In this document: piece after piece, positions 1 to 39,364 of the stretch
Layout of the letters: each line of letters begins with the position of its first letter
Numbering within the stretch: position 1 is the first letter of the stretch
Assembly (NCBI GenBank): GCA_001778595.1
Contig: MFHL01000004.1
Coordinates: 9,235 to 48,598 of the forward strand
DNA: 39,364 nt
Direction: 5' to 3'
Source: Candidatus Giovannonibacteria bacterium RIFCSPHIGHO2_02_FULL_44_11
GTDB lineage: Bacteria > Patescibacteriota > Minisyncoccia > UBA11713 > 2-01-FULL-45-33
Program-made: the position numbers and the translations under genes
The notes under the pieces: model-generated
Seen by the model: only the letters and a program-made list of their open reading frames with translations
Database searches by the model: none
Told to the model about the DNA's origin: nothing

Positions 1-57
1 GACCTCGGCATCATGCTCAAAACCGCGAGTATTATGATAAGAAGAGGCGGGAGATAA
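1..57 (+). CDS. 3' end (last 18 codons + TAA) of a polyprenyl-phosphate sugar-phosphate transferase (bacterial sugar transferase family); 5' part is outside the window
   Basis: Frame +1 reads DLGIMLKTASIMIRRGGR*. The longer duplicate at 820-915 reads NDLYYVKNRSLLMDLGIMLKTASIMIRRGGR*. Together they resemble the conserved C-terminal tail (D..YY..N.S...D..I...T) of WbaP/PglC-type initiating transferases. Only the tail is visible. Confidence 0.55.
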   Translation, partial: DLGIMLKTASIMIRRGGR

Positions 58-62
58 GCTCC

Positions 63-85
63 ACTTGGAAACCGGGTTTCCAAGT
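63..85. repeat. Perfect 23-nt palindrome acttggaaacc-g-ggtttccaagt (REP-like hairpin), immediately 3' of the transposase stop codon
   Basis: Read directly: an 11-bp stem with a 1-nt centre. The same core recurs at 748-772. Confidence 0.9.
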
Positions 86-88
86 TGA

Positions 89-733
89 TTATTCCAACAA
101 CAAGCGTTCTAATTCTTTAGATTCTTCTTTTCGCTTAAGAATATCTTTGAGCGACCCTTCAGCAAAATTTTTATATTCACCTTTATTCCTGAATTGATCT
201 AAAATTATATCGGGCTTGCATAATCGGATAGATGATTTATTAAAATACTCGTCCAAACTCGAACGGAACACTTTGCCCCTATGTCTGTGAATGAGATTAT
301 TTAAATTAACATATGCGCTTAAGTGCATTAGATACTCGTTCGAATCTATATGGATCGCCTTAAATTGCCCTTGAAAAAGAACTCCGATTCTTTTGTGTTG
401 AGTATTAAAATATTTAGTATATCCCCCGCCCAAGCTCTTCATATAATTGCTAATGCCGTTATCGGCCAATTGTTCAAGAATTAGATGAAAATGATTTAAA
501 TTCAGACAATAGCAAATTATATTTACTAATTTAGATTTTTTAAGTTTTAGTTTTATATCGGAATCGAGAAAAGAATTCTCATAAATGCTGCCGATTGGCT
601 CAACAACATTAAATTCATCCATGCTTAGCAGAAAGCGATCAAAATCTTGCGATTTAGTAAAGATTGACCTTTTATCCGTCCCACGATTATATATGTGATA
701 AAATTCCCCATTCGCAAATTTTATTTTTCTCAT
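89..733 (-). CDS. REP-associated tyrosine transposase (RAYT) / IS200-like HUH-Y1 transposase family protein
   Basis: From the ATG at 731-733 the product starts MRKIKFANGEFYHIYNRGTDKRSIF. HUH motif: NHFHLIL. Downstream: GVLFQGQFKAIHIDSNEYLMHLSAYVNLN, carrying the catalytic Tyr-type 'Y..H.S.Y...N' region typical of COG1943-like proteins. The ORF-track start at 820 is a TTG that reads through the flanking hairpin, so 733 is preferred. Confidence 0.85.
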   Translation of the reverse strand: MRKIKFANGEFYHIYNRGTDKRSIFTKSQDFDRFLLSMDEFNVVEPIGSIYENSFLDSDIKLKLKKSKLVNIICYCLNLNHFHLILEQLADNGISNYMKSLGGGYTKYFNTQHKRIGVLFQGQFKAIHIDSNEYLMHLSAYVNLNNLIHRHRGKVFRSSLDEYFNKSSIRLCKPDIILDQFRNKGEYKNFAEGSLKDILKRKEESKELERLLLE

Positions 734-747
734 AGCACCTACCATAG

Positions 748-772
748 CACTTGGAAACCGGGTTTCCAAGTG
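748..772. repeat. Perfect 25-nt palindrome cacttggaaacc-g-ggtttccaagtg, second copy of the REP-like hairpin, just upstream of the transposase start
   Basis: Read directly. The core is identical to 63-85. Confidence 0.9.
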
Positions 773-819
773 GATAAGATGAACACGTAAATATATCGAA
801 AAACTCAAAAACAAGGCCA

Positions 820-915
820 AACGACCTCTACTACGTCAAAAACCGCTCGCTCCTGATGGACCTCGGCATCATGCTCAAAACCGCGAGTATTATGATAAGA
901 AGAGGCGGGAGATAA
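820..915 (+). pseudogene. Orphan duplicate of the sugar transferase 3' end (31 codons + TAA)
   Basis: Reads NDLYYVKNRSLLMDLGIMLKTASIMIRRGGR*. An in-frame TAA at 775-777 lies upstream, and there is no transferase-like sequence before about 820. The last 57 nt are identical to 1-57. Confidence 0.55.
859..915 (+). repeat. 57-bp direct repeat, 100% identical to 1-57
   Basis: gacctcggcatcatgctcaaaaccgcgagtattatgataagaagaggcgggagataa occurs at both positions. The repeat may extend further left, but the window edge hides this. Confidence 0.95.
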
Positions 916-3208: not shown

Positions 3209-3758
3209 TTTTTGAAATAACTCTTTTATAAGGCAGGAATACAACGCCGTGCAATTCCAAAATATTCACTCCTTCCAGATAAGCCTTTTTTCTGGCGTTC
3301 GCGACCAATTTTTCAAAAGCTTTTGAATTACGATTTACGTCGATATAAAGATCTTCTTTGTCCAGCATCACATATTTTGTCCTAAGTTTTCTGATAATGG
3401 TCTGCATATTTTTAACGCCAAGTCTTGTTTCGATCTTTGGCACAACCTCAATATGCGCCGGTAGTTTTGATTTTATGGCAAAAATCGCCTTCGGATCTTC
3501 AACATTGGAAACGGCAAAATATTTTATATGTGGAAATTGATGCGCAACCGCAATCGTCTCCCCAAGTGTCATTTTGGGCTTGGGAGGCTTTGATCTGCCT
3601 TGTGGATAATCAAGATATACGTCGTGTTTTATTTTACCCAAAAGCGCCAAAAGCTCCTTTTTGTCTTTTATCCACGCAACATTGATCCGCAAAACAACAC
3701 TTTCCTTAGGAAAATCGATGGGCGTCGCCGACAATAAATAATGCGATACTAATAACAT
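3177..3758 (-). CDS. Small pyruvate-kinase-barrel / HpcH-like (PEP/pyruvate-binding TIM barrel superfamily) protein, function unknown
   Basis: 193 aa. YFAVSNVEDPKAIFAIKSKLPAHIEVVPKIETRLGVKNMQTIIRKLRTKYVMLDKEDLYIDV resembles the pyruvate kinase segment '..SFV....D......L......I..KIE...GV.N...I....DG.M.ARGDL..E'. The protein is too short for a full barrel. Assignment is by eye only. Confidence 0.4.
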   Translation of the reverse strand: MLLVSHYLLSATPIDFPKESVVLRINVAWIKDKKELLALLGKIKHDVYLDYPQGRSKPPKPKMTLGETIAVAHQFPHIKYFAVSNVEDPKAIFAIKSKLPAHIEVVPKIETRLGVKNMQTIIRKLRTKYVMLDKEDLYIDVNRNSKAFEKLVANARKKAYLEGVNILELHGVVFLPYKRVISKNDLKIKSIMS

Positions 3759-9042: not shown

Positions 9043-9069
9043 AAAAAACCTGCCTTGCCGGCAGGCAGG
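9043..9069 (-). terminator. Rho-independent terminator formed by a CCTGCC..GGCAGG palindrome plus a U6 tail
   Basis: The minus strand reads cctgcctgccggcaaggcagg followed by tttttt. It sits 13 nt after the TAG stop (9082-9084) of the GNAT gene, in the only 100-nt gap of this operon run. Confidence 0.75.
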
Positions 9070-32057: not shown

Positions 32058-33145
32058 AAAAATTTTAAAATATTTTCGGTTCTTTTATCCCAGGTGTATT
32101 TTTTTGAATCTTCATGTGCTTGTGCGGATATTTTTTGGGCCAAAGCGGGGTCGTCCAGAACTTTTTTGATACCCTCGGCAAGAGCTTTGGGGTTTCCGGC
32201 TTCCACAAGTACGGAATTGCCTTCGTTCAGGACTTCCCTTGTACTTGGGAGATCGGAAGAGATAATTGGCCGTTTTGAGGCCATATACTCAAACATTTTC
32301 ATCGGAGACATATAGTAGGAGTAATGGGTGGTTTTGGGGAAAGGCATAAGAAGGACGTCAAAGGCTTTTTGGTAGAGGGCTACAATATCCTGCGTCTGGT
32401 GGTCCCTGAAAAAAGCCCTTCCGCTAAGCCCCATATCATCGGCGACCTTTTGATATTCCACAACATGTCTTGGCTTGCCTCCCATAGCAACAAATATCAC
32501 ATTTTGCGGTAAAAACTTCAGCGCCTCCAAAATATCAAAAAAACCTTTATCCTCCCCCATAGTCTTATAACGCCCGCAGTAGCCTATTATTTTCATGTTT
32601 TGAGGCAGACCAAGCTTTGCGCGCGCTTCCTCTTTAGAGGCGCTTATATCAAAAATTTTGAGGTCCACTCCGTCCGGAGCAACAAACATCTGCTTTTTAT
32701 CAAGTCCGTATTTTTCCAGATACATATCGGTGAGATGCTTTGTTACGCAAATATAATAATCCGCAAAAAAAGAAATTATTCTTTCGGCCAAACCGTTCAA
32801 AAAATCGTTTTCTATTATTCTGTGCACTTCGTAGGCGAATTTGGCTTTATTACCTGAAATTTTTCCGAAAATCCCCAAAAACAAAAGCAGTTTCGGTTCA
32901 CGGCAATAAATAATATCTACATTGTTTTTTTTTGCGAATTTCAAATATTTCGGCGCGAGCAGATAGCTTTTTTCTGTTTTGAAATTTAAAATTTGGAAAT
33001 TCACGCCGTCCGATTTTATATTTTCTCCTCCAAGCCAAAAATTATTTCCCATTTTTACGCCAAAAGCTTTGGACATGGCCAAAATCTGCATGCGGTTGGC
33101 AAGTCCGGACGGATAAGATATTGAAGTGGCGTAAAGCAATCTCAT
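32054..33145 (-). CDS. GT4 glycosyltransferase
   Basis: 363 aa. IIGYCGRYKTMGEDKG, VAMGG, DVLLMPFP...SPMKMFEYMASKRPIISSD (EX7E-type region). Confidence 0.85.
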   Translation of the reverse strand: MRLLYATSISYPSGLANRMQILAMSKAFGVKMGNNFWLGGENIKSDGVNFQILNFKTEKSYLLAPKYLKFAKKNNVDIIYCREPKLLLFLGIFGKISGNKAKFAYEVHRIIENDFLNGLAERIISFFADYYICVTKHLTDMYLEKYGLDKKQMFVAPDGVDLKIFDISASKEEARAKLGLPQNMKIIGYCGRYKTMGEDKGFFDILEALKFLPQNVIFVAMGGKPRHVVEYQKVADDMGLSGRAFFRDHQTQDIVALYQKAFDVLLMPFPKTTHYSYYMSPMKMFEYMASKRPIISSDLPSTREVLNEGNSVLVEAGNPKALAEGIKKVLDDPALAQKISAQAHEDSKKYTWDKRTENILKFL

Positions 33146-33149
33146 AAGA

Positions 33150-34331
33150 TTAAAAAATGAATCCTATAATTTTTGTTGCTCTCTTCTCCCAAGTATAACT
33201 CTGAACATCCTCATATGCTCTCGCCGCCAATTGTCGGCCTAAAGCAGAGTCATTCAATATTTTTTCAATTCCGGCCGCCAAAGCCTTGGGGTTCCCTGCT
33301 TCAACCAAAATGGCATTATTTTCGTTTAAAACTTCTCTGACACTGGGAAGATTTGACGCGACAATGGGGCGCTTGGAGGCCATATACTCAAACATTTTCA
33401 TCGGAGACATATAGTAGGAATAATGAGTGGTTTTGGGGAAAGGCATAAGCAGGACGTCAAAGGCTTTTTGGTAGAGGGCGAGCTTTGCGCGCGGAACTCT
33501 TTCTATAAATAGATTATTCCCTTCCGTGTAAGTTTTATTTCCTCCGACTGAAACCAAAAAAACATTCTGCCTGCTTTTCAAAATCTCTGCAACAGCCTCT
33601 GTCATATCTTCCAGTCCCTTTCCCATGCCCATAGTGTGCGTGGCGCCCGTATAACCGAGCAAAACCGCATTTTGCGGCAGACCAAGCTTTGCGCGCGCAT
33701 CTTCTTTTGAAATATTGATATCAAATATTTTCAAATCTACCCCGTCGCGAGCAACTAAGATATCAGATTCTTTAAAGCCCTGCCTGCCGGCAGGCAGGCG
33801 GCACTTTTTATAAAGCTCCGCCAAAGTGTTCGTCACGGCAATAACTTTTACGGCTTTTTTTATGAAATATTTATGCAGCCAAATTTTGCTCTGTGGCCAG
33901 CGGTGCGATTCAAAGACCGTTTTGTAGCCGCGGCGCGAAAAAAGAAATACAATTTCCGGATTACGAGAATAAATAACGGAGTCCGCGGAGGATTTTACGG
34001 TTAAAAGCTTTATAAGAAAAAAAATACTCTGAAGAATAAAACCTATTTTTCTTAAAAACAGCGGCGTCATGGCAATAAAATCAGGAGTTAAAATTTGCAT
34101 AACCTTAAAATTTCTTTCAATCCCGTAATATTCAAACAAATCTGCTTTTATTTCATTGCGTCTGGTAGGAATTATCAACTCTATTTCAATTTTATCAGCG
34201 TTATTTCCGCGTTCGTAATCAGCGTATGATCTGTGGCTTTGCGTAGCAAAGCTCTCACACATTTTGGCAACCTGATATCCGTGAGCTTTTTCCGTAGGCA
34301 TGCGGAAGTTGGCGATATAAATCAATTTCAT
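33150..34331 (-). CDS. GT4 glycosyltransferase, tandem paralog of 32054-33145
   Basis: 393 aa. It shares ARAKLGLPQN and ALYQKAFDVLLMPFPKTTHYSYYMSPMKMFEYMASKRPI with its neighbour. It carries the palindrome-encoded insert RLPAGRQG. Confidence 0.85.
   Translation of the reverse strand: MKLIYIANFRMPTEKAHGYQVAKMCESFATQSHRSYADYERGNNADKIEIELIIPTRRNEIKADLFEYYGIERNFKVMQILTPDFIAMTPLFLRKIGFILQSIFFLIKLLTVKSSADSVIYSRNPEIVFLFSRRGYKTVFESHRWPQSKIWLHKYFIKKAVKVIAVTNTLAELYKKCRLPAGRQGFKESDILVARDGVDLKIFDINISKEDARAKLGLPQNAVLLGYTGATHTMGMGKGLEDMTEAVAEILKSRQNVFLVSVGGNKTYTEGNNLFIERVPRAKLALYQKAFDVLLMPFPKTTHYSYYMSPMKMFEYMASKRPIVASNLPSVREVLNENNAILVEAGNPKALAAGIEKILNDSALGRQLAARAYEDVQSYTWEKRATKIIGFIF
33779..33798. repeat. 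Perfect 20-nt palindrome cctgcctgccggcaggcagg inside the GT4 CDS
   Basis: Read directly. It is translated as L-P-A-G-R-Q, and the paralog lacks these residues at the aligned position. Confidence 0.95.
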
Positions 34332-34332
34332 A

Positions 34333-34983
34333 TTATTTTTCCAAAATAAACACGTATCCGAGAGGATATTTTTCCTTAAGCTTCGGTCTCAGTTTAATCA
34401 GCGCAAGGTCAAAATAATAATAAAACGGCAGCGCGATTAATTTTATGAAGCGCGGAAAAGGAAAAGAAGCGTAAATATTATAACTTACAGCGCACGGACC
34501 CAGACCGACCTCTATGATTTGTATGTTTTTAAAACCAGTTTCGCCAAATATATTGCGGAGCGCTTCTTTTGTATATCTGAAATAATCCCGCGGATCCGGA
34601 TGGTAACTCATCATAAAAGGCACAAAACCCAAAACTTGCCGGCCGGGCTTCAGAACCCTTTTTATCTCGCCCGCCAAAAACCTATAGTTATAAATATGTT
34701 CAAAAAGATTAAAAACCAAAACATGGTCAATGGACCCGTCGGAATAAGGCAGCGGATCTTTCTCAAGGTCTATAGTTTTACCGATTTCATGCAGACTTTT
34801 AAAGTCAATATTGATGATTTCAGCACCTTCTTCTTTTTTTAAAAACTCAAAATAACTGGGATTCACTCCCCCGCCGATATCCAAAACTTTTCCGCGGACG
34901 GAATAGTTGGCGAGCTCCAGATTCATTAAGGTTCGCAGGAGACTTTTTTTGCGCCAAATACCTTTTGCTATTTTTAAAATCAT
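34333..34983 (-). CDS. Class I SAM-dependent methyltransferase (type 11-like)
   Basis: 216 aa. VLDIGGGVNP, DHVLVFNLFEHI and LKPGR. Confidence 0.75.
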   Translation of the reverse strand: MILKIAKGIWRKKSLLRTLMNLELANYSVRGKVLDIGGGVNPSYFEFLKKEEGAEIINIDFKSLHEIGKTIDLEKDPLPYSDGSIDHVLVFNLFEHIYNYRFLAGEIKRVLKPGRQVLGFVPFMMSYHPDPRDYFRYTKEALRNIFGETGFKNIQIIEVGLGPCAVSYNIYASFPFPRFIKLIALPFYYYFDLALIKLRPKLKEKYPLGYVFILEK

Positions 34984-37271
34984 GTTTTTTTGAATAAATC
35001 TATAAATTCTTTAACGCCCTTTGCAACATCAAAGTTTTGGGCGTAATCAACGCAATCTCTCTCCGCTTTCTCATATAACGCTTTATCGGACAAAAGTATA
35101 TTTATTTTATCCCGGAAGCATTTAACATCTTCCGGTTTGCATAAAAATTGAACAAGGCTTTCGGGAATCAATTCCCTGATGCCGCCGATGTCGGAAGCGA
35201 CAAACGGCGTCCCCGAAGCCATTGCTTCCAATATAACACGCGGAGAGCCCTCTTCGCGCGAAGGCATGAAAAATATATCCGCGGCATGAAAAAATTTAGG
35301 GATTTCGCTATTCGACACTTTGCCAAGAACTTTAATATTAGGAACTCCGCATTTTTCCAGATTTTCTTTTTCAGGTCCGTCGCCCACAACCAAAAACAAA
35401 ACGTCATCACCGAATCCTTTCGCGATTTCAGGAATTAAATCCGCGCCTTTGCGTTTGGAAAGATGATGGACGAAAAGCGCAATGTGTTTGCCTGAATTTG
35501 GCGAAGGAGGAAGTTTTGCAAGACCTTGCGCAGCACGACGGTGCGAGCAGAGCAATTCGCCAACAGGCGAATATGCGTGTCCTTGCAAAACTTCGCTCCG
35601 AGACAAATTCGCTACTGGCGCGAATCTTTTCACATCCACCCAATTTGATACAACGCGGTATTCTTTTACGCCGTAACGCTCCGTATATTCTTTCGCCAAA
35701 GACTCCGGCCCCGTTACTAAAATAGTGTGCCGTAATACAAACCTAAGCAGTTTCTCTTCAAACCAACTCCTTTTGAACAGCCACGGCATTCCGCGGTTCC
35801 AATAAAAAACTTTTCCTCCCTGCCTCGCCGGCAGGCAGGCCACAAGCCAAGCGGAGAGCGCTCCATAATAAGAATAATGCACGTAGAAATTTTTATAGCC
35901 TGAAAGGCGGAGCCTTAAACAGATAAACAGCATTTCCAAAAATCTTAACGGCGGAAATTTAAATTTTTGGACATAAGCTGATGCCCCCAAATGTCGAACA
36001 TTCGATGTTCGACATTTCTCGACTATAACAAACAAATCCAACTCATTCCCTGCCGCCAATCTTTTAATCATCAGATAATTATAAAAAAAGTGGGTATCCG
36101 TACCCTCTTCATAAAGAGGCAAAACATAGCAAACTTTTGATTTGGTGAGATTTTTTAGAAGCCCGGCATAAAGTTCCAAATATTTTTCTTTTGACATGGG
36201 GCTTGGAAAAGAATTTTCCGCGCTTTTTTTAAATTTTGCCAATTGTTCCGGATTTGCAATAAATTGCGATATCCGCAGTGCCAAAGCGCGGCTATCCCCG
36301 ACAGGTACAATTGCCGCGTTAACGCCGTCTTTTATGATTTCGTGCCCGCGCACAACATCAGTCACAATAACCGGAAGACCGGACGCAAGAGCTTCAATGG
36401 GTGCGAGTGGCCAACCTTCATAAAACGAGGTCAAAAGAAACAGGTCGGCAGTTTTATAATACGAAATCAGAGTTTCAAAATCTACCGCAGACTCAAAAAT
36501 AACTGATTCTTTCAATCCAAGGCTGTCCGCCAAAATCCGCAAGCGCTCTTTTTCCGGCCCGTCACCGACGATTAAAAGCATTGGTCTCGCTGTACCGTCA
36601 AATTTTTCAAGGACACGCATATCCCGCTGCTGCGGGATTGCTCTGCTCGCGCCGTCGCGCTGCGCAAGGTCTTGAAAAACTTGAGCTACAGCTCCGACCG
36701 CCATATCAATATTTTTTTCTTTCGTAATACGCGAGGCCATTAAAATAATAAATTTACCGGGATATTTTTTGTGTAAATCAATTTTTACGGCGGTTTTTCT
36801 GATCTTTTCAATATCAACAAATACCGGAAGAACCGCAACGCGGCCGGCGAGCGATTTATCATAATCCGCTATGGATTCTTTGATTTTCTCCGAAACCACG
36901 CGGATGCCATCCGCGCGCGGAAGCAAAAACTTAATCAGAAAAACGCGAATCTTGTTCAACACCGAGTGTTTGATAAAATGCGGGCTGAAAATATCGGTAT
37001 GAATCTGCATTTGCCACGGGACGCCGTATATTTTAGAAAATACCCATGCGAGCGCGGCGTGCTCCGGGCTTTGGGCCGTAATTACATCGGGTTTTTTCCG
37101 CCGCATGATTTTCAGCCCGCGGAAAAATCCGTAAATATAATTAAAAATATTTCCCCGGCAAATCAAAATATCCAGCCCGCCGAAAGCCCGGCGGTACTCT
37201 TCCATTCTTTTAGCAACCGCGGACTCCGGGTCCAAAACTCCCGGATCCCCGCTTATCATCAGAACCATCAT
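34980..37271 (-). CDS. Fused double GT4 glycosyltransferase (two complete GT4 modules)
   Basis: 763 aa. Module 1: LLIVGDGPEKERL...LLTSFYEGWPLAPIEALASGLPVIVTD. Module 2: LFLVVGDGPEKENL...FFMPSREEGSPRVILEAMASGTPFVASD. It contains three repeat insertions (35513-35591, 35819-35839, 36602-36680). Confidence 0.85.
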   Translation of the reverse strand: MMVLMISGDPGVLDPESAVAKRMEEYRRAFGGLDILICRGNIFNYIYGFFRGLKIMRRKKPDVITAQSPEHAALAWVFSKIYGVPWQMQIHTDIFSPHFIKHSVLNKIRVFLIKFLLPRADGIRVVSEKIKESIADYDKSLAGRVAVLPVFVDIEKIRKTAVKIDLHKKYPGKFIILMASRITKEKNIDMAVGAVAQVFQDLAQRDGASRAIPQQRDMRVLEKFDGTARPMLLIVGDGPEKERLRILADSLGLKESVIFESAVDFETLISYYKTADLFLLTSFYEGWPLAPIEALASGLPVIVTDVVRGHEIIKDGVNAAIVPVGDSRALALRISQFIANPEQLAKFKKSAENSFPSPMSKEKYLELYAGLLKNLTKSKVCYVLPLYEEGTDTHFFYNYLMIKRLAAGNELDLFVIVEKCRTSNVRHLGASAYVQKFKFPPLRFLEMLFICLRLRLSGYKNFYVHYSYYGALSAWLVACLPARQGGKVFYWNRGMPWLFKRSWFEEKLLRFVLRHTILVTGPESLAKEYTERYGVKEYRVVSNWVDVKRFAPVANLSRSEVLQGHAYSPVGELLCSHRRAAQGLAKLPPSPNSGKHIALFVHHLSKRKGADLIPEIAKGFGDDVLFLVVGDGPEKENLEKCGVPNIKVLGKVSNSEIPKFFHAADIFFMPSREEGSPRVILEAMASGTPFVASDIGGIRELIPESLVQFLCKPEDVKCFRDKINILLSDKALYEKAERDCVDYAQNFDVAKGVKEFIDLFKKT
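35513..35591 (+). repeat. ~79-bp multi-hairpin palindromic element, copy A (forward), in frame within the CDS
   Basis: gttttgcaag...cttgcaaaac terminal 10-bp inverted repeat, plus internal hairpins gcac-gacg-gtgc and attcgcc-aaca-ggcgaat. 67/79 identical to the reverse complement of 36602-36680. Confidence 0.9.
35819..35839. repeat. Imperfect palindrome cctgcctcgccggcaggcagg inside the CDS
   Basis: Read directly; translated as C-L-P-A-R-Q. Confidence 0.9.
36602..36680 (-). repeat. ~79-bp multi-hairpin palindromic element, copy B (inverted), in frame within the same CDS
   Basis: The reverse complement reads gtttttcaagaccttgcgcagcgcgacggcgcgagcagagcaatcccgcagcagcgggatatgcgtgtccttgaaaaat. It has the same architecture as copy A, with compensatory changes. 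Confidence 0.9.
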
Positions 37272-38419
37272 TGTTTTAAAATTTTTATAGTCTCATTTAT
37301 CATTCTCTCTTTTGAAAATTCTTCCGCTTTTTTCTTGGCATTTTCGGACATTGCAGTGGCAAAACTTTTATCCGACAAAATCTTGTCTATTTTTTCCGCA
37401 AAAGCAAACTTATCGTTAAACTCAACTAAAAATCCTGTTATTCCGTCTATTACAAGCTCCGGGTTCCCTCCCACATCTGTCGTGACGACCGGTACGCCCA
37501 AAGCCATTGCTTCCAATATCTGATGCGACAAACCCTCGTATGACGTATTAAGTGCGAATACATCAGCCGCCCTTAAGTAGTCCAGCACCGCATCGCGCGA
37601 AAGCGCTCCCGTAAATATAACTTTTTCAACAAGCCATGCCCTGTTCCGTACTGATTCCAGGCGGTTTCTTTCCGGTCCTTCGCCGATAATAATAAGTTTT
37701 AAACCCGCACGCTCGTCCAGCGCGTCGCCGAATTTTTTTGAAAGCTCCGGCATTATTTCAATAAGCGCGTCAAATCCTTTCCACGGCACCAACCGCCCGG
37801 CCGATACAATTATTTTTCCTTCCAACCCAATCTGTTTCTTTGCGTCTTCTTTGGAAATTGAGGCTGATGTTCCCTGCGGTGCGTCGAATGCGTTGTAAAT
37901 AACAATGATTTTTTGAGGGTCCACTCCCCATTTTAAAACAACCTTCTTCAGATAATTGCTCGGCACTATGACTTTTTCGGCATTGTTCGCGACCCGGCGC
38001 TCCAATTTTCTGAAAAGCTCAACTTTAAAACCGTATTTTCCTGCCTGCGCAGGCAGGTTTTCTAAAAAATCATCCAAAATTTCTTTGACCCCGAAGCGCC
38101 CGACTCCCTGTTCCCACGCGTAATCCCCGACAATCTTCAGCAAAAACTTTTTTTTCCACAATTTCCCCGCAATCAATGCCGAAATGCCGGAATTTAAAAC
38201 ATCCTGCGCATATATAATATCCGCATTCCGCGCCGCCAAAAGAACTTTAATAAAATAAACCGGCTGGCGCAGAACCCAGGGGTATTTTTTTAATTTTCCG
38301 AACGTAACAACCGTAACCTCTATCCCCTGCCCGGGCAGTTCTTCTTTGAGTAATTTGCTGTATGTCGCGGGCCCGCCGATATCGGGCGGGTAAATGCCCG
38401 TGGCTATTAATATTTTCAT
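37268..38419 (-). CDS. GT4 glycosyltransferase
   Basis: 383 aa. MKILIATGIYPPDIGGPATY, LIIIGEGPERNRL and ALNTSYEGLSHQILEAMALGVPVVTTD. Confidence 0.85.
   Translation of the reverse strand: MKILIATGIYPPDIGGPATYSKLLKEELPGQGIEVTVVTFGKLKKYPWVLRQPVYFIKVLLAARNADIIYAQDVLNSGISALIAGKLWKKKFLLKIVGDYAWEQGVGRFGVKEILDDFLENLPAQAGKYGFKVELFRKLERRVANNAEKVIVPSNYLKKVVLKWGVDPQKIIVIYNAFDAPQGTSASISKEDAKKQIGLEGKIIVSAGRLVPWKGFDALIEIMPELSKKFGDALDERAGLKLIIIGEGPERNRLESVRNRAWLVEKVIFTGALSRDAVLDYLRAADVFALNTSYEGLSHQILEAMALGVPVVTTDVGGNPELVIDGITGFLVEFNDKFAFAEKIDKILSDKSFATAMSENAKKKAEEFSKERMINETIKILKQ
38040..38057. repeat. Perfect 18-nt palindrome cctgcctgcgcaggcagg inside the GT4 CDS
   Basis: Read directly; translated as L-P-A-Q-A-G. 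It is followed by TTTT on the plus (antisense) strand. Confidence 0.95.
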
Positions 38420-39364
38420 AAAAGTTTAATAAAAACGTTTTTTGTCTTTGACGCTACATCGCTCCATAAATATTTTGTGCGGATGAGCGCGCGGGCATTG
38501 CCTATTATCTGCGCTTTTCTTGAGGGAGCCAGAACAAGCGCGGTTCTTATCGCCTCAACAAGGCTGTCAACATTGTCGGGTATGGCCAAAAAACCCGTTC
38601 TACCTTCCCATAAATAATCCGTTATCCCGCCGACCGGCGTGCCGATAGTAATAAGCCCCGCCGCCATTGCTTCCAGAAACGCGCTTCCCAAGCCTTCAGA
38701 ACGCGAGGGACGCACAAAAATATCCGCGCCTGAATAAAGTTTTATCAGATTTTCGTAAGGCACATGGCCCAAAAATTCCACCCTGTCTTTAAGGCCCAGC
38801 GCTTCGCTGAATTCCGCCAAGCTTTTCTTTTCCGGCCCGTCTCCGGCAATAATAACTTTCCAGCCCGAGGCTGGTCCGCCTTGGGCGGAAAAATCACTCT
38901 TCAACCGTGCCGCCGCTTTTAAGAGCACTTCCAGCGCGTTCTTTTTGACGAGCCTTGAAGAAGAAAAAATCACTTTTTCTCCCGGAAATTCCGGACGCGG
39001 AATCAAAAGAAGCCTTTCATCTACTCCGTTGGGTATTATCTCAACTGTTCCGCGGTAACCTTTTTCTTTTACGATTTGCTCGAGATAATTGCTTATCGCA
39101 GTCACATGATTTGCTTTTTTAAGCAGCAGTTTCCACCACAAGGCCGAGAGGCCGAAATTTTTTGCTTTTACATTCCATTCCCCGTCGCCCTCCTGAATAG
39201 TTAGCAGAAATGGAATATTTTTTTTGAATATTTTAACAAAAAACGCGCCCACCGATGCGTACGAAACCATCACACCCCATAAAAGTTTTTTTCTGTCCTT
39301 AAATTCTTTTGTCAGAGCAAAGCCTTTCCGCGCCGCCAAAAAAGGGAACAAAAACATCCGGTCA
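38416..39364 (-). CDS. GT4 glycosyltransferase, probably 5'-truncated by the window edge
   Basis: VIIAGDGPEKKSL...VRPSRSEGLGSAFLEAMAAGLITIGTP. The frame stays open from the ATG at 39355-39357 to the window end, and the usual GT4 N-terminal ~60-80 aa are missing. Confidence 0.8.
   Translation of the reverse strand, partial: DRMFLFPFLAARKGFALTKEFKDRKKLLWGVMVSYASVGAFFVKIFKKNIPFLLTIQEGDGEWNVKAKNFGLSALWWKLLLKKANHVTAISNYLEQIVKEKGYRGTVEIIPNGVDERLLLIPRPEFPGEKVIFSSSRLVKKNALEVLLKAAARLKSDFSAQGGPASGWKVIIAGDGPEKKSLAEFSEALGLKDRVEFLGHVPYENLIKLYSGADIFVRPSRSEGLGSAFLEAMAAGLITIGTPVGGITDYLWEGRTGFLAIPDNVDSLVEAIRTALVLAPSRKAQIIGNARALIRTKYLWSDVASKTKNVFIKLL
38860..38889. repeat. Two abutting 15-nt mini-hairpins (ccagcc-cga-ggctgg and tccgcc-ttg-ggcgga) inside the GT4 CDS
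   Basis: Read directly. This is a GC-rich island in AT-rich coding sequence and encodes SAQGGPASGW. Confidence 0.85.

Follow-up and report, generated by a model that had tools for sequence, protein, structure and literature searches.

A structure-constrained hairpin repeat of Patescibacteria lying in frame in many unrelated genes

A stretch of DNA of 39,364 nt from Candidatus Giovannonibacteria bacterium RIFCSPHIGHO2_02_FULL_44_11 (contig MFHL01000004.1, positions 9,235 to 48,598; the whole stretch is called the window here) carries two copies of a hairpin-shaped repeat inside one glycosyltransferase (GT) gene. The repeat is a multi-copy unit constrained in its structure; it is present at some orthologous sites and absent from others, and it lies in frame in many unrelated genes. 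It is read here, with a probability of about 0.6, as a family of non-autonomous hairpin-shaped repeats of Patescibacteria, mainly of Paceibacteria/Parcubacteria lineages such as Giovannonibacteria, that spread by copying. Copies inside genes keep the frame and contain no stop codon and would hence add 35–40 residues at tolerant loop positions of the host protein. The host gene and the two copies are located as follows.

34980..37271, minus strand: host gene, a 763-residue fusion of two GT4 modules (open reading frame, Pfam)
35494..35610, plus strand: copy A, whole hairpin unit of outer arms and core (inverted arms, fold, covariance model)
35524..35579, plus strand: copy A, conserved core (family alignment, pair counts, RNAalifold)
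36582..36700, minus strand: copy B, whole hairpin unit (fold with extended arms, covariance model)
36614..36669, minus strand: copy B, conserved core (alignment with copy A and with the family)

The longest inverted repeat of the window (35511–35593 against 36600–36682) spans 83 nt and is 86% complementary. An earlier description made from the letters alone (the sequence-only reading) had presented it as two 79-mers placed in frame and in both orientations within one glycosyltransferase gene; the coordinates and sequences that it gave were correct on re-extraction, and the open reading frame (ORF) at 34980–37271 on the minus strand reads through both copies as the peptides that had been proposed. 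Alignment reproduced the 67/79 positions common to the two 79-mers. The 12 differences fall into five compensatory pairs (three in hairpin 2 and one each in hairpin 1 and the closing stem), one change in a loop and one terminal G–T. The unit size of 79 bp was wrong, as a self-complementary stem extends each window copy outward to a full unit of ∼115–119 nt, or ∼39 codons. In copy A the arm at 35494–35522 pairs with that at 35582–35610, and the core between them runs in the order CCTTGCGCAGC, hairpin 1 (35533–35544), GAGCAGAGCAAT, hairpin 2 (35552–35576), ATATGCGTG. Copy A, antisense to the host gene, is read as residues ∼556–594 (NLSRSEVLQGHAYSPVGELLCSHRRAAQGLAKLPPSPNSG); copy B, in the sense direction, is read as residues ∼191–230 (AVGAVAQVFQDLAQRDGASRAIPQQRDMRVLEKFDGTARP). 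The covariance model matched copy A at 35493–35611 with 111.7 bits and copy B at 36582–36700 with 104.6 bits, and no third copy was found in the window by nhmmer or by the covariance model with its filters off, the next score being 13 bits. On both strands, and whether RNA or DNA parameters are used, the two copies adopt the same three-way fold, in which a closing stem carries two small hairpins; the fold z-scores range from −3 to −5.5 (RNA or DNA).

The further copies that the sequence-only reading had proposed to look for were found in number. A degenerate pattern located 22 loci in ∼11 species genomes, every one a Patescibacteria metagenome-assembled genome (MAG) belonging to Giovannonibacteria, Paceibacterota or Taylorbacteria or, in some cases, labelled Saccharibacteria. 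A second pattern located 92 stretches in groundwater, aquifer and sediment metagenomes, of which ∼4 are chance matches; the search patterns fixed 21–24 nt of the core. Searching all of the fetched DNA with nhmmer yielded 123 copies, 96 of them unique. The second pattern gave no match in viral contigs and BLAST of the element gave none in plasmids or phages, which ruled out a phage or plasmid origin. A known RNA family or self-cleaving ribozyme was likewise ruled out, since Rfam 15 gave no match at the gathering threshold in the window and permissive filters applied to the element returned matches at chance level only (E of at least 0.25). At the protein level, a 31-residue insert peptide, a query short of statistical power, gave two matches among 1.8 billion representatives, and a 72-residue concatenated insert query gave no word-sharing candidates.

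Every copy forms one long hairpin of ∼110–120 nt. Its conserved, asymmetric core of ∼56 nt consists of a short junction helix, hairpin 1 (4 bp) and hairpin 2 (7–10 bp), and is carried on an outer stem of 25–45 bp whose sequence varies by subfamily and whose pairing is always kept. Pairwise identity averages 86% in the core against 36% in the arms. Each copy nevertheless matches itself: own arms fold with −31.8 kcal/mol, against −12.6 kcal/mol with the 3′ arm of another copy, and the own partner was better than all 20 cross partners in 75 of 88 copies. One subfamily, whose members have identical arms, occurs in many unrelated genes. (L-numbers below denote fetched loci and P-numbers orthologues of the host protein.) Among irregular copies, a 46-nt AT-rich stretch replaces hairpin 1 in L081 (5590–5700), and remnants of the 3′ half only occur in L001 (∼1895–1935) and in L053. 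An autonomous version with a split core and a large insert was rejected, as nothing beyond the L081 replacement and the truncated L001/L053 remnants was seen.

Covariation was assessed in 88 unique copies against the structure derived from single-sequence folds. Standard pairs occupy 98.2% of the cells, compared with 87.4% in column shuffles (0/500 of which reach the observed value), and sliding the partner by 1–3 columns lowers pairing to 20–58%. Both-sided changes occur in nine pairs; at column pair 71–81, for instance, 42 copies have GC, 35 have UA and 10 have CG. RNAalifold independently predicted the same core structure. Covariation is strong in both small hairpins, and the junction helix UUGC/GCAG (4 bp) is uninformative in this respect because it is invariant. 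The covariation seen first in the two window copies, and read there as a sign of selection on nucleic-acid structure and not on the peptide, thus holds across the larger set.

Roughly half of the copies lie in genes: 49 of 95 unique copies by crude gene calls, and 42 of 95 when at least 40 open codons were required on both sides in an open-frame analysis. The remaining copies fill short intergenic spacers, as at L087. Among the hosts, Pfam confirmed RecR, HrcA, MiaA, MurB, a class-V aminotransferase (which carries two inserts in one gene), methylpurine-DNA glycosylase (MPG), Dus, a ComF-like protein and YmdB; LeuRS, CysRS, UvrC, GatB, LigA, ComEC and HolA were assigned by eye, and IscS is also named among the hosts. 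At least five reading frames are used: 24 coding copies are read on the strand of the gene in phase 0 (VLQDLAQRDGASRAI.QQ..MRVLAK), ten on the opposite strand in phase 0 (LQGHAYSPAGELLCSRRRAAQGLAK) and eight in three further frames. Orientation relative to transcription follows no rule, with 33 copies in the same and 16 in the opposite direction within genes, and eight and 11, respectively, between co-directional genes. All six frames are free of stop codons in the 109-nt consensus of the coding-resident subfamily, a state reached by 0/20,000 composition-preserving shuffles and by 0.08% of palindrome-preserving shuffles. At least five frames are open over the hairpin in 28/42 coding copies, against 8/53 non-coding copies.

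The host gene of the window shows the same variability within one set of orthologues. Pfam recognized Glycos_transf_1 twice and Glyco_transf_4 in the host protein, which is 100% identical to the 762-residue A2930_01895 (P0001) of Candidatus Giovannonibacteria RIFCSPLOWO2_01_FULL. Both inserts are absent from double-GT4 orthologues of 35–40% identity, which have short loops at these places instead, and close orthologues vary in presence, absence and orientation, an outcome that favours lineage-specific insertion. In P0002 (72% identical) insert 1 is present, and the loop of its hairpin 2 contains an extra hairpin of 30 nt; this extra hairpin lies at ∼3600–3700 of locus L115, which holds the P0002 gene, aligns with window positions 36600–36680 and is translated PASPELQRGE. 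This suggests that further hairpins insert or expand in the loops of the element. At site 2 of P0002 the insert is gone and one arm is kept as a deletion scar; at the same site the insert is reversed in P0003 relative to the window and is read in yet another frame in P0005. In P0002 and P0004 a variant subfamily provides a third insert, and the corresponding site of the window gene holds none. An AlphaFold model of the window protein has a mean predicted local distance difference test score (pLDDT) of 85.2, and the only segments below 50 are residues 208–225 and 566–592, which are the two inserts; for this one gene, the model places the insert peptide compatibly with the host fold. An explanation as ordinary coding sequence or as a conserved protein module was ruled out by the use of at least five frames, by compensation at the nucleotide level and by the absence of the inserts from distant orthologues.

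The third GT site, which follows GDGPEK of module 2 and is empty in the window (∼35370), is filled in L115 and L116 by a diverged sister subfamily. The sister subfamily, which is translated VFQDFSQRDG..LSNSPAGEYAGLEK, also occurs at L010 5687–5807, and positions of the core that are otherwise invariant are altered in it in a manner that breaks the predicted junction helix.

If the repeats are a family that spread by copying, whole hairpin units would have been copied to new sites, and individual copies would occasionally have been flipped or partly deleted in place. The machinery that recognizes them would act on the folded single strand and read the core; recognition of this kind would explain why the core is conserved in sequence and the stems in pairing only. 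Several observations weigh against this reading. Neither a transposition event nor a conserved terminal repeat nor an autonomous partner was found, and no larger element carrying the core occurs in 0.86 Mb of flanking DNA. No target-site duplication is visible in the subfamily-A copies, which were inspected by eye, with ends that are not base-exact and with empty sites (L115, L116) that are too diverged. Copy number per genome appears low, with at most seven exact-pattern matches in one MAG, and translation of the inserts is inferred from the kept frame and the lack of stops. A further point concerns the core, which is 86–100% identical at orthologous sites against 41–63% identity at the flanking third codon positions, which are saturated. 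Window copy A and its orthologous copy in L031 share 55/55 core positions, compared with 64–79% identity in the arms and 66–70% in the flanks. Part of this signal is ascertainment, since the patterns fixed 21–24 nt of the core; the positions not fixed in this way are just as unchanged. Such conservation is not expected of a decaying selfish insert, and the core thus appears to have a maintained function. The proposed likeness to the Rickettsia palindromic elements (RPE) is supported, as the copies resemble RPE in lying in frame in unrelated genes and also between genes, but selfishness is not proven because the core is kept in place far above neutral expectation, and the element may be more than selfish DNA.

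The same conservation argues for a different account, which we consider possible but doubtful, in which the element is a functional nucleic-acid structure maintained by the host, that is, a cis-acting module of RNA or single-stranded DNA (protein-binding, processing or regulatory) that was duplicated to a moderate number of sites and is now under purifying selection at each, with the coding copies being functional sites and not passengers. The paralogous copies of one genome, such as the two in the window, hold their own compensatory variants, so that homogenization by gene conversion is unlikely. A tandem G·A motif, seen as CGA(N)G on the 5′ arm and YGAG on the 3′ arm of the same strand, each ∼18 nt from the core, is present on both arms in about half of the copies (42/89), and the strand that bears it folds better than its complement in 74 of 96 copies, mainly through purine–purine internal loops; in some subfamilies the CGAG-like motif is missing or is replaced by perfect pairing (the latter in L031/L051). 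Set against this account are the lack of any rule of orientation with respect to transcription, the flipping of the core between orthologues of three genes (at GT site 2, in miaA and in comF, each time at one and the same site), the occurrence at unrelated housekeeping loci with presence and absence varying among close relatives, and the lack of an Rfam match. The outer stems and core hairpins contain G·U-type and A·C-type mismatches in about equal measure, which gives no RNA-specific wobble signature; an argument from wobble pairs for selection specific to RNA was dropped on this ground. In its boldest form, which we put forward tentatively, the three-way-junction core of ∼56 nt might be an undescribed functional module (catalytic, guide-like or involved in protein recognition as a folded single strand) under purifying selection at every locus, including those in essential genes, and the coding-resident lineage might have evolved translatability in six frames, perhaps recoding host proteins.

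The window also encodes, at 89–733, a protein with a Y1_Tnp domain (28 bits; cut-off, 23), and the sequence-only reading had linked this gene, as a RAYT-type transposase, to the repeat. In such a scheme the repeat would be an element of the REPIN/PATE type that is moved by the IS200-like Y1 (HUH) transposase family of this ORF, which would cut the folded single strand at motifs on both arms. The distance between a homologue of the ORF and an element is 0.5–0.8 kb in L020 and L028/L055 and 6 kb in L026. The lack of a visible target-site duplication or conserved terminal repeat and the presence of same-strand CGAG-like motifs on both arms are also consistent with it, as absent target-site duplications and same-strand arm motifs fit the single-strand HUH chemistry of IS200/IS605. 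We nonetheless consider this scheme improbable. The hairpins that flank the window Y1 gene (62–89 and 748–775; CACTTGGAAACCGGGTTTCCAAGT) are unrelated to the element, as the same reading had itself remarked; chance would give about as many Y1 genes as the four or five present in the 0.86 Mb of fetched DNA, few loci have a homologue near the element, the CGAG motif is absent from half of the copies and the hallmarks of REP (20–40 nt, a 5′ GTAG/CGTC tag, an extragenic position) are not those of the repeat. The link to the RAYT-type gene is therefore unsupported; the window ORF itself is 35 kb from the nearest element. It belongs to an IS200-like unit at window positions 1–915, in which the ORF (minus strand) stands between the near-identical hairpins just mentioned and which is bracketed by a perfect 57-bp direct repeat (1–57 and 859–915) that looks like the duplicated 3′ end of a neighbouring gene.

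It is most improbable that the repeat acts as an invertible switch within genes, the inverted arms allowing the core to flip and the host protein to alternate between two loop sequences. Both orientations do occur at the same orthologous site in the three genes named above, and with all six frames open either orientation stays translatable, but about half of the copies are intergenic, no invertase is linked to them and flips are seen only between diverged orthologues: all 23 of 23 pairs with flanks at least 95% identical share their orientation. Active inversion was rejected on these 0 flipped pairs among 23 near-identical loci, in a comparison that is low in power as assemblies give the majority orientation only. 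An intein or self-splicing intron was dismissed, as 35–40 residues are too short, several frames are used and no group I or group II model matched.

A second repeat of smaller size is present in the host gene and is listed here in the same form as the features above.

35819..35839, no strand assigned: short GC palindrome CCTGCCTCGCCGGCAGGCAGG in the host gene, translated LPARQGG and absent from distant orthologues

This palindrome belongs to a repeat family other than that of the large element. The family has the form CCTGCC..GGCAGG with a length of ∼20 nt and occurs four times in the window (9049–9069, 33779–33798, 35819–35839 and 38040–38057), against 0 expected by chance. At least three of its members are read in frame in GT genes (LPAGRQG, LPARQGG and LPAQAG). 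The same palindrome also lies within the large element in L082, L090 and L116, and it is found in nine other loci. Elsewhere in the glycosyltransferase cluster, the neighbouring single-module GT4 genes (37268–38419 and 38416–39357) have extra residues (GDALDERAGLK and SDFSAQGGPASGWK) in the same loop, which immediately precedes the IIxGxGPE strand; these residues may be decayed or short palindromic inserts. A direct repeat of 300 nt with 73% identity (32061–32360 and 33160–33459) connects two glycosyltransferase genes that lie side by side and are probably tandem paralogues.

Full-text literature searches found no description of in-frame palindromic elements in the candidate phyla radiation (CPR), and protein-coding palindromic repeats have so far been treated as a peculiarity of Rickettsia. 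The present copies represent the same phenomenon in a second lineage of small-genome bacteria, where core genes such as those of RecR, LeuRS, MurB and IscS are affected, and they offer a natural test case for the entry of new surface loops into proteins. They are also a practical cause of artefacts when CPR proteins are annotated or aligned, because low-confidence loops of 35–40 residues can share sequence between unrelated proteins. The clean architecture of the element, in which the core is conserved, the stem covaries freely and all six frames are open, makes the factor that mobilizes or recognizes it experimentally approachable.

The element can be placed beside several known systems. A classical miniature inverted-repeat transposable element derived from a DDE transposon was excluded, since the terminal repeats are not conserved (the arms are 36% identical and only the centre is conserved) and no larger element with the core turned up in 0.86 Mb. 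The double-hairpin elements and mobile GC clusters of fungal mitochondria are small, consist of several hairpins, show compensatory changes and are tolerated in frame in coding and rRNA genes; they differ in being organellar, in being much shorter and in having no long outer stem. REP/REPIN sequences share with the present family the hairpin form, the lack of visible target-site duplications, a presumed action as folded single strands and a long-lived, vertically inherited state. They measure 20–40 nt, are extragenic, carry a 5′ GTAG/CGTC tag and accompany a RAYT gene that is flanked by its own REPs (PMC3733652), whereas the unit described here measures ∼115 nt, is intragenic in half of the cases and has no GTAG/CGTC tag, and the Y1 gene is not flanked by it.

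ERIC/RU-1 sequences and other small mobile repeats of enterobacteria are closer, being imperfect palindromes of ∼100–170 bp with a conserved central inverted repeat; most are intergenic, and some carry open frames inside genes (Delihas, 2007; PMC2759123). ERIC is, however, conserved over its full length and rarely intragenic (PMC2759123), in contrast to the present family, in which about half of the copies are intragenic and the arms are unconserved. The closest precedent remains that named in the sequence-only reading, the RPE, a likeness that was supported in function, with ERIC/RU next. According to the summary in PMC10969869 of the work of Ogata et al. (2000, 2002), RPE are palindromic repeats of 100–150 bp that are found between genes and, unusually often, in frame in unrelated housekeeping genes. 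The family described here resembles them in its palindromic unit (∼110–120 nt in one long hairpin against ∼100–150 bp) and in lying often in frame in unrelated genes as well as between genes (42–49 of 95 copies in genes, with hosts of nine Pfam families); an added peptide that fits the protein fold is a further likeness, and a mobilizing enzyme is known for neither. The two differ in their hosts (Rickettsiales and Patescibacteria), and the likeness is one of form and placement. They differ also in that only an apical core of ∼56 nt is conserved here, on a compensated stem of ∼36% identity, and in that at least five frames and both orientations are used and the core is kept in place above neutral expectation. 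All matches lie in Patescibacteria, and the family is therefore an analogue of the RPE, as it is of the intragenic ERIC/RU sequences, and a member of neither.

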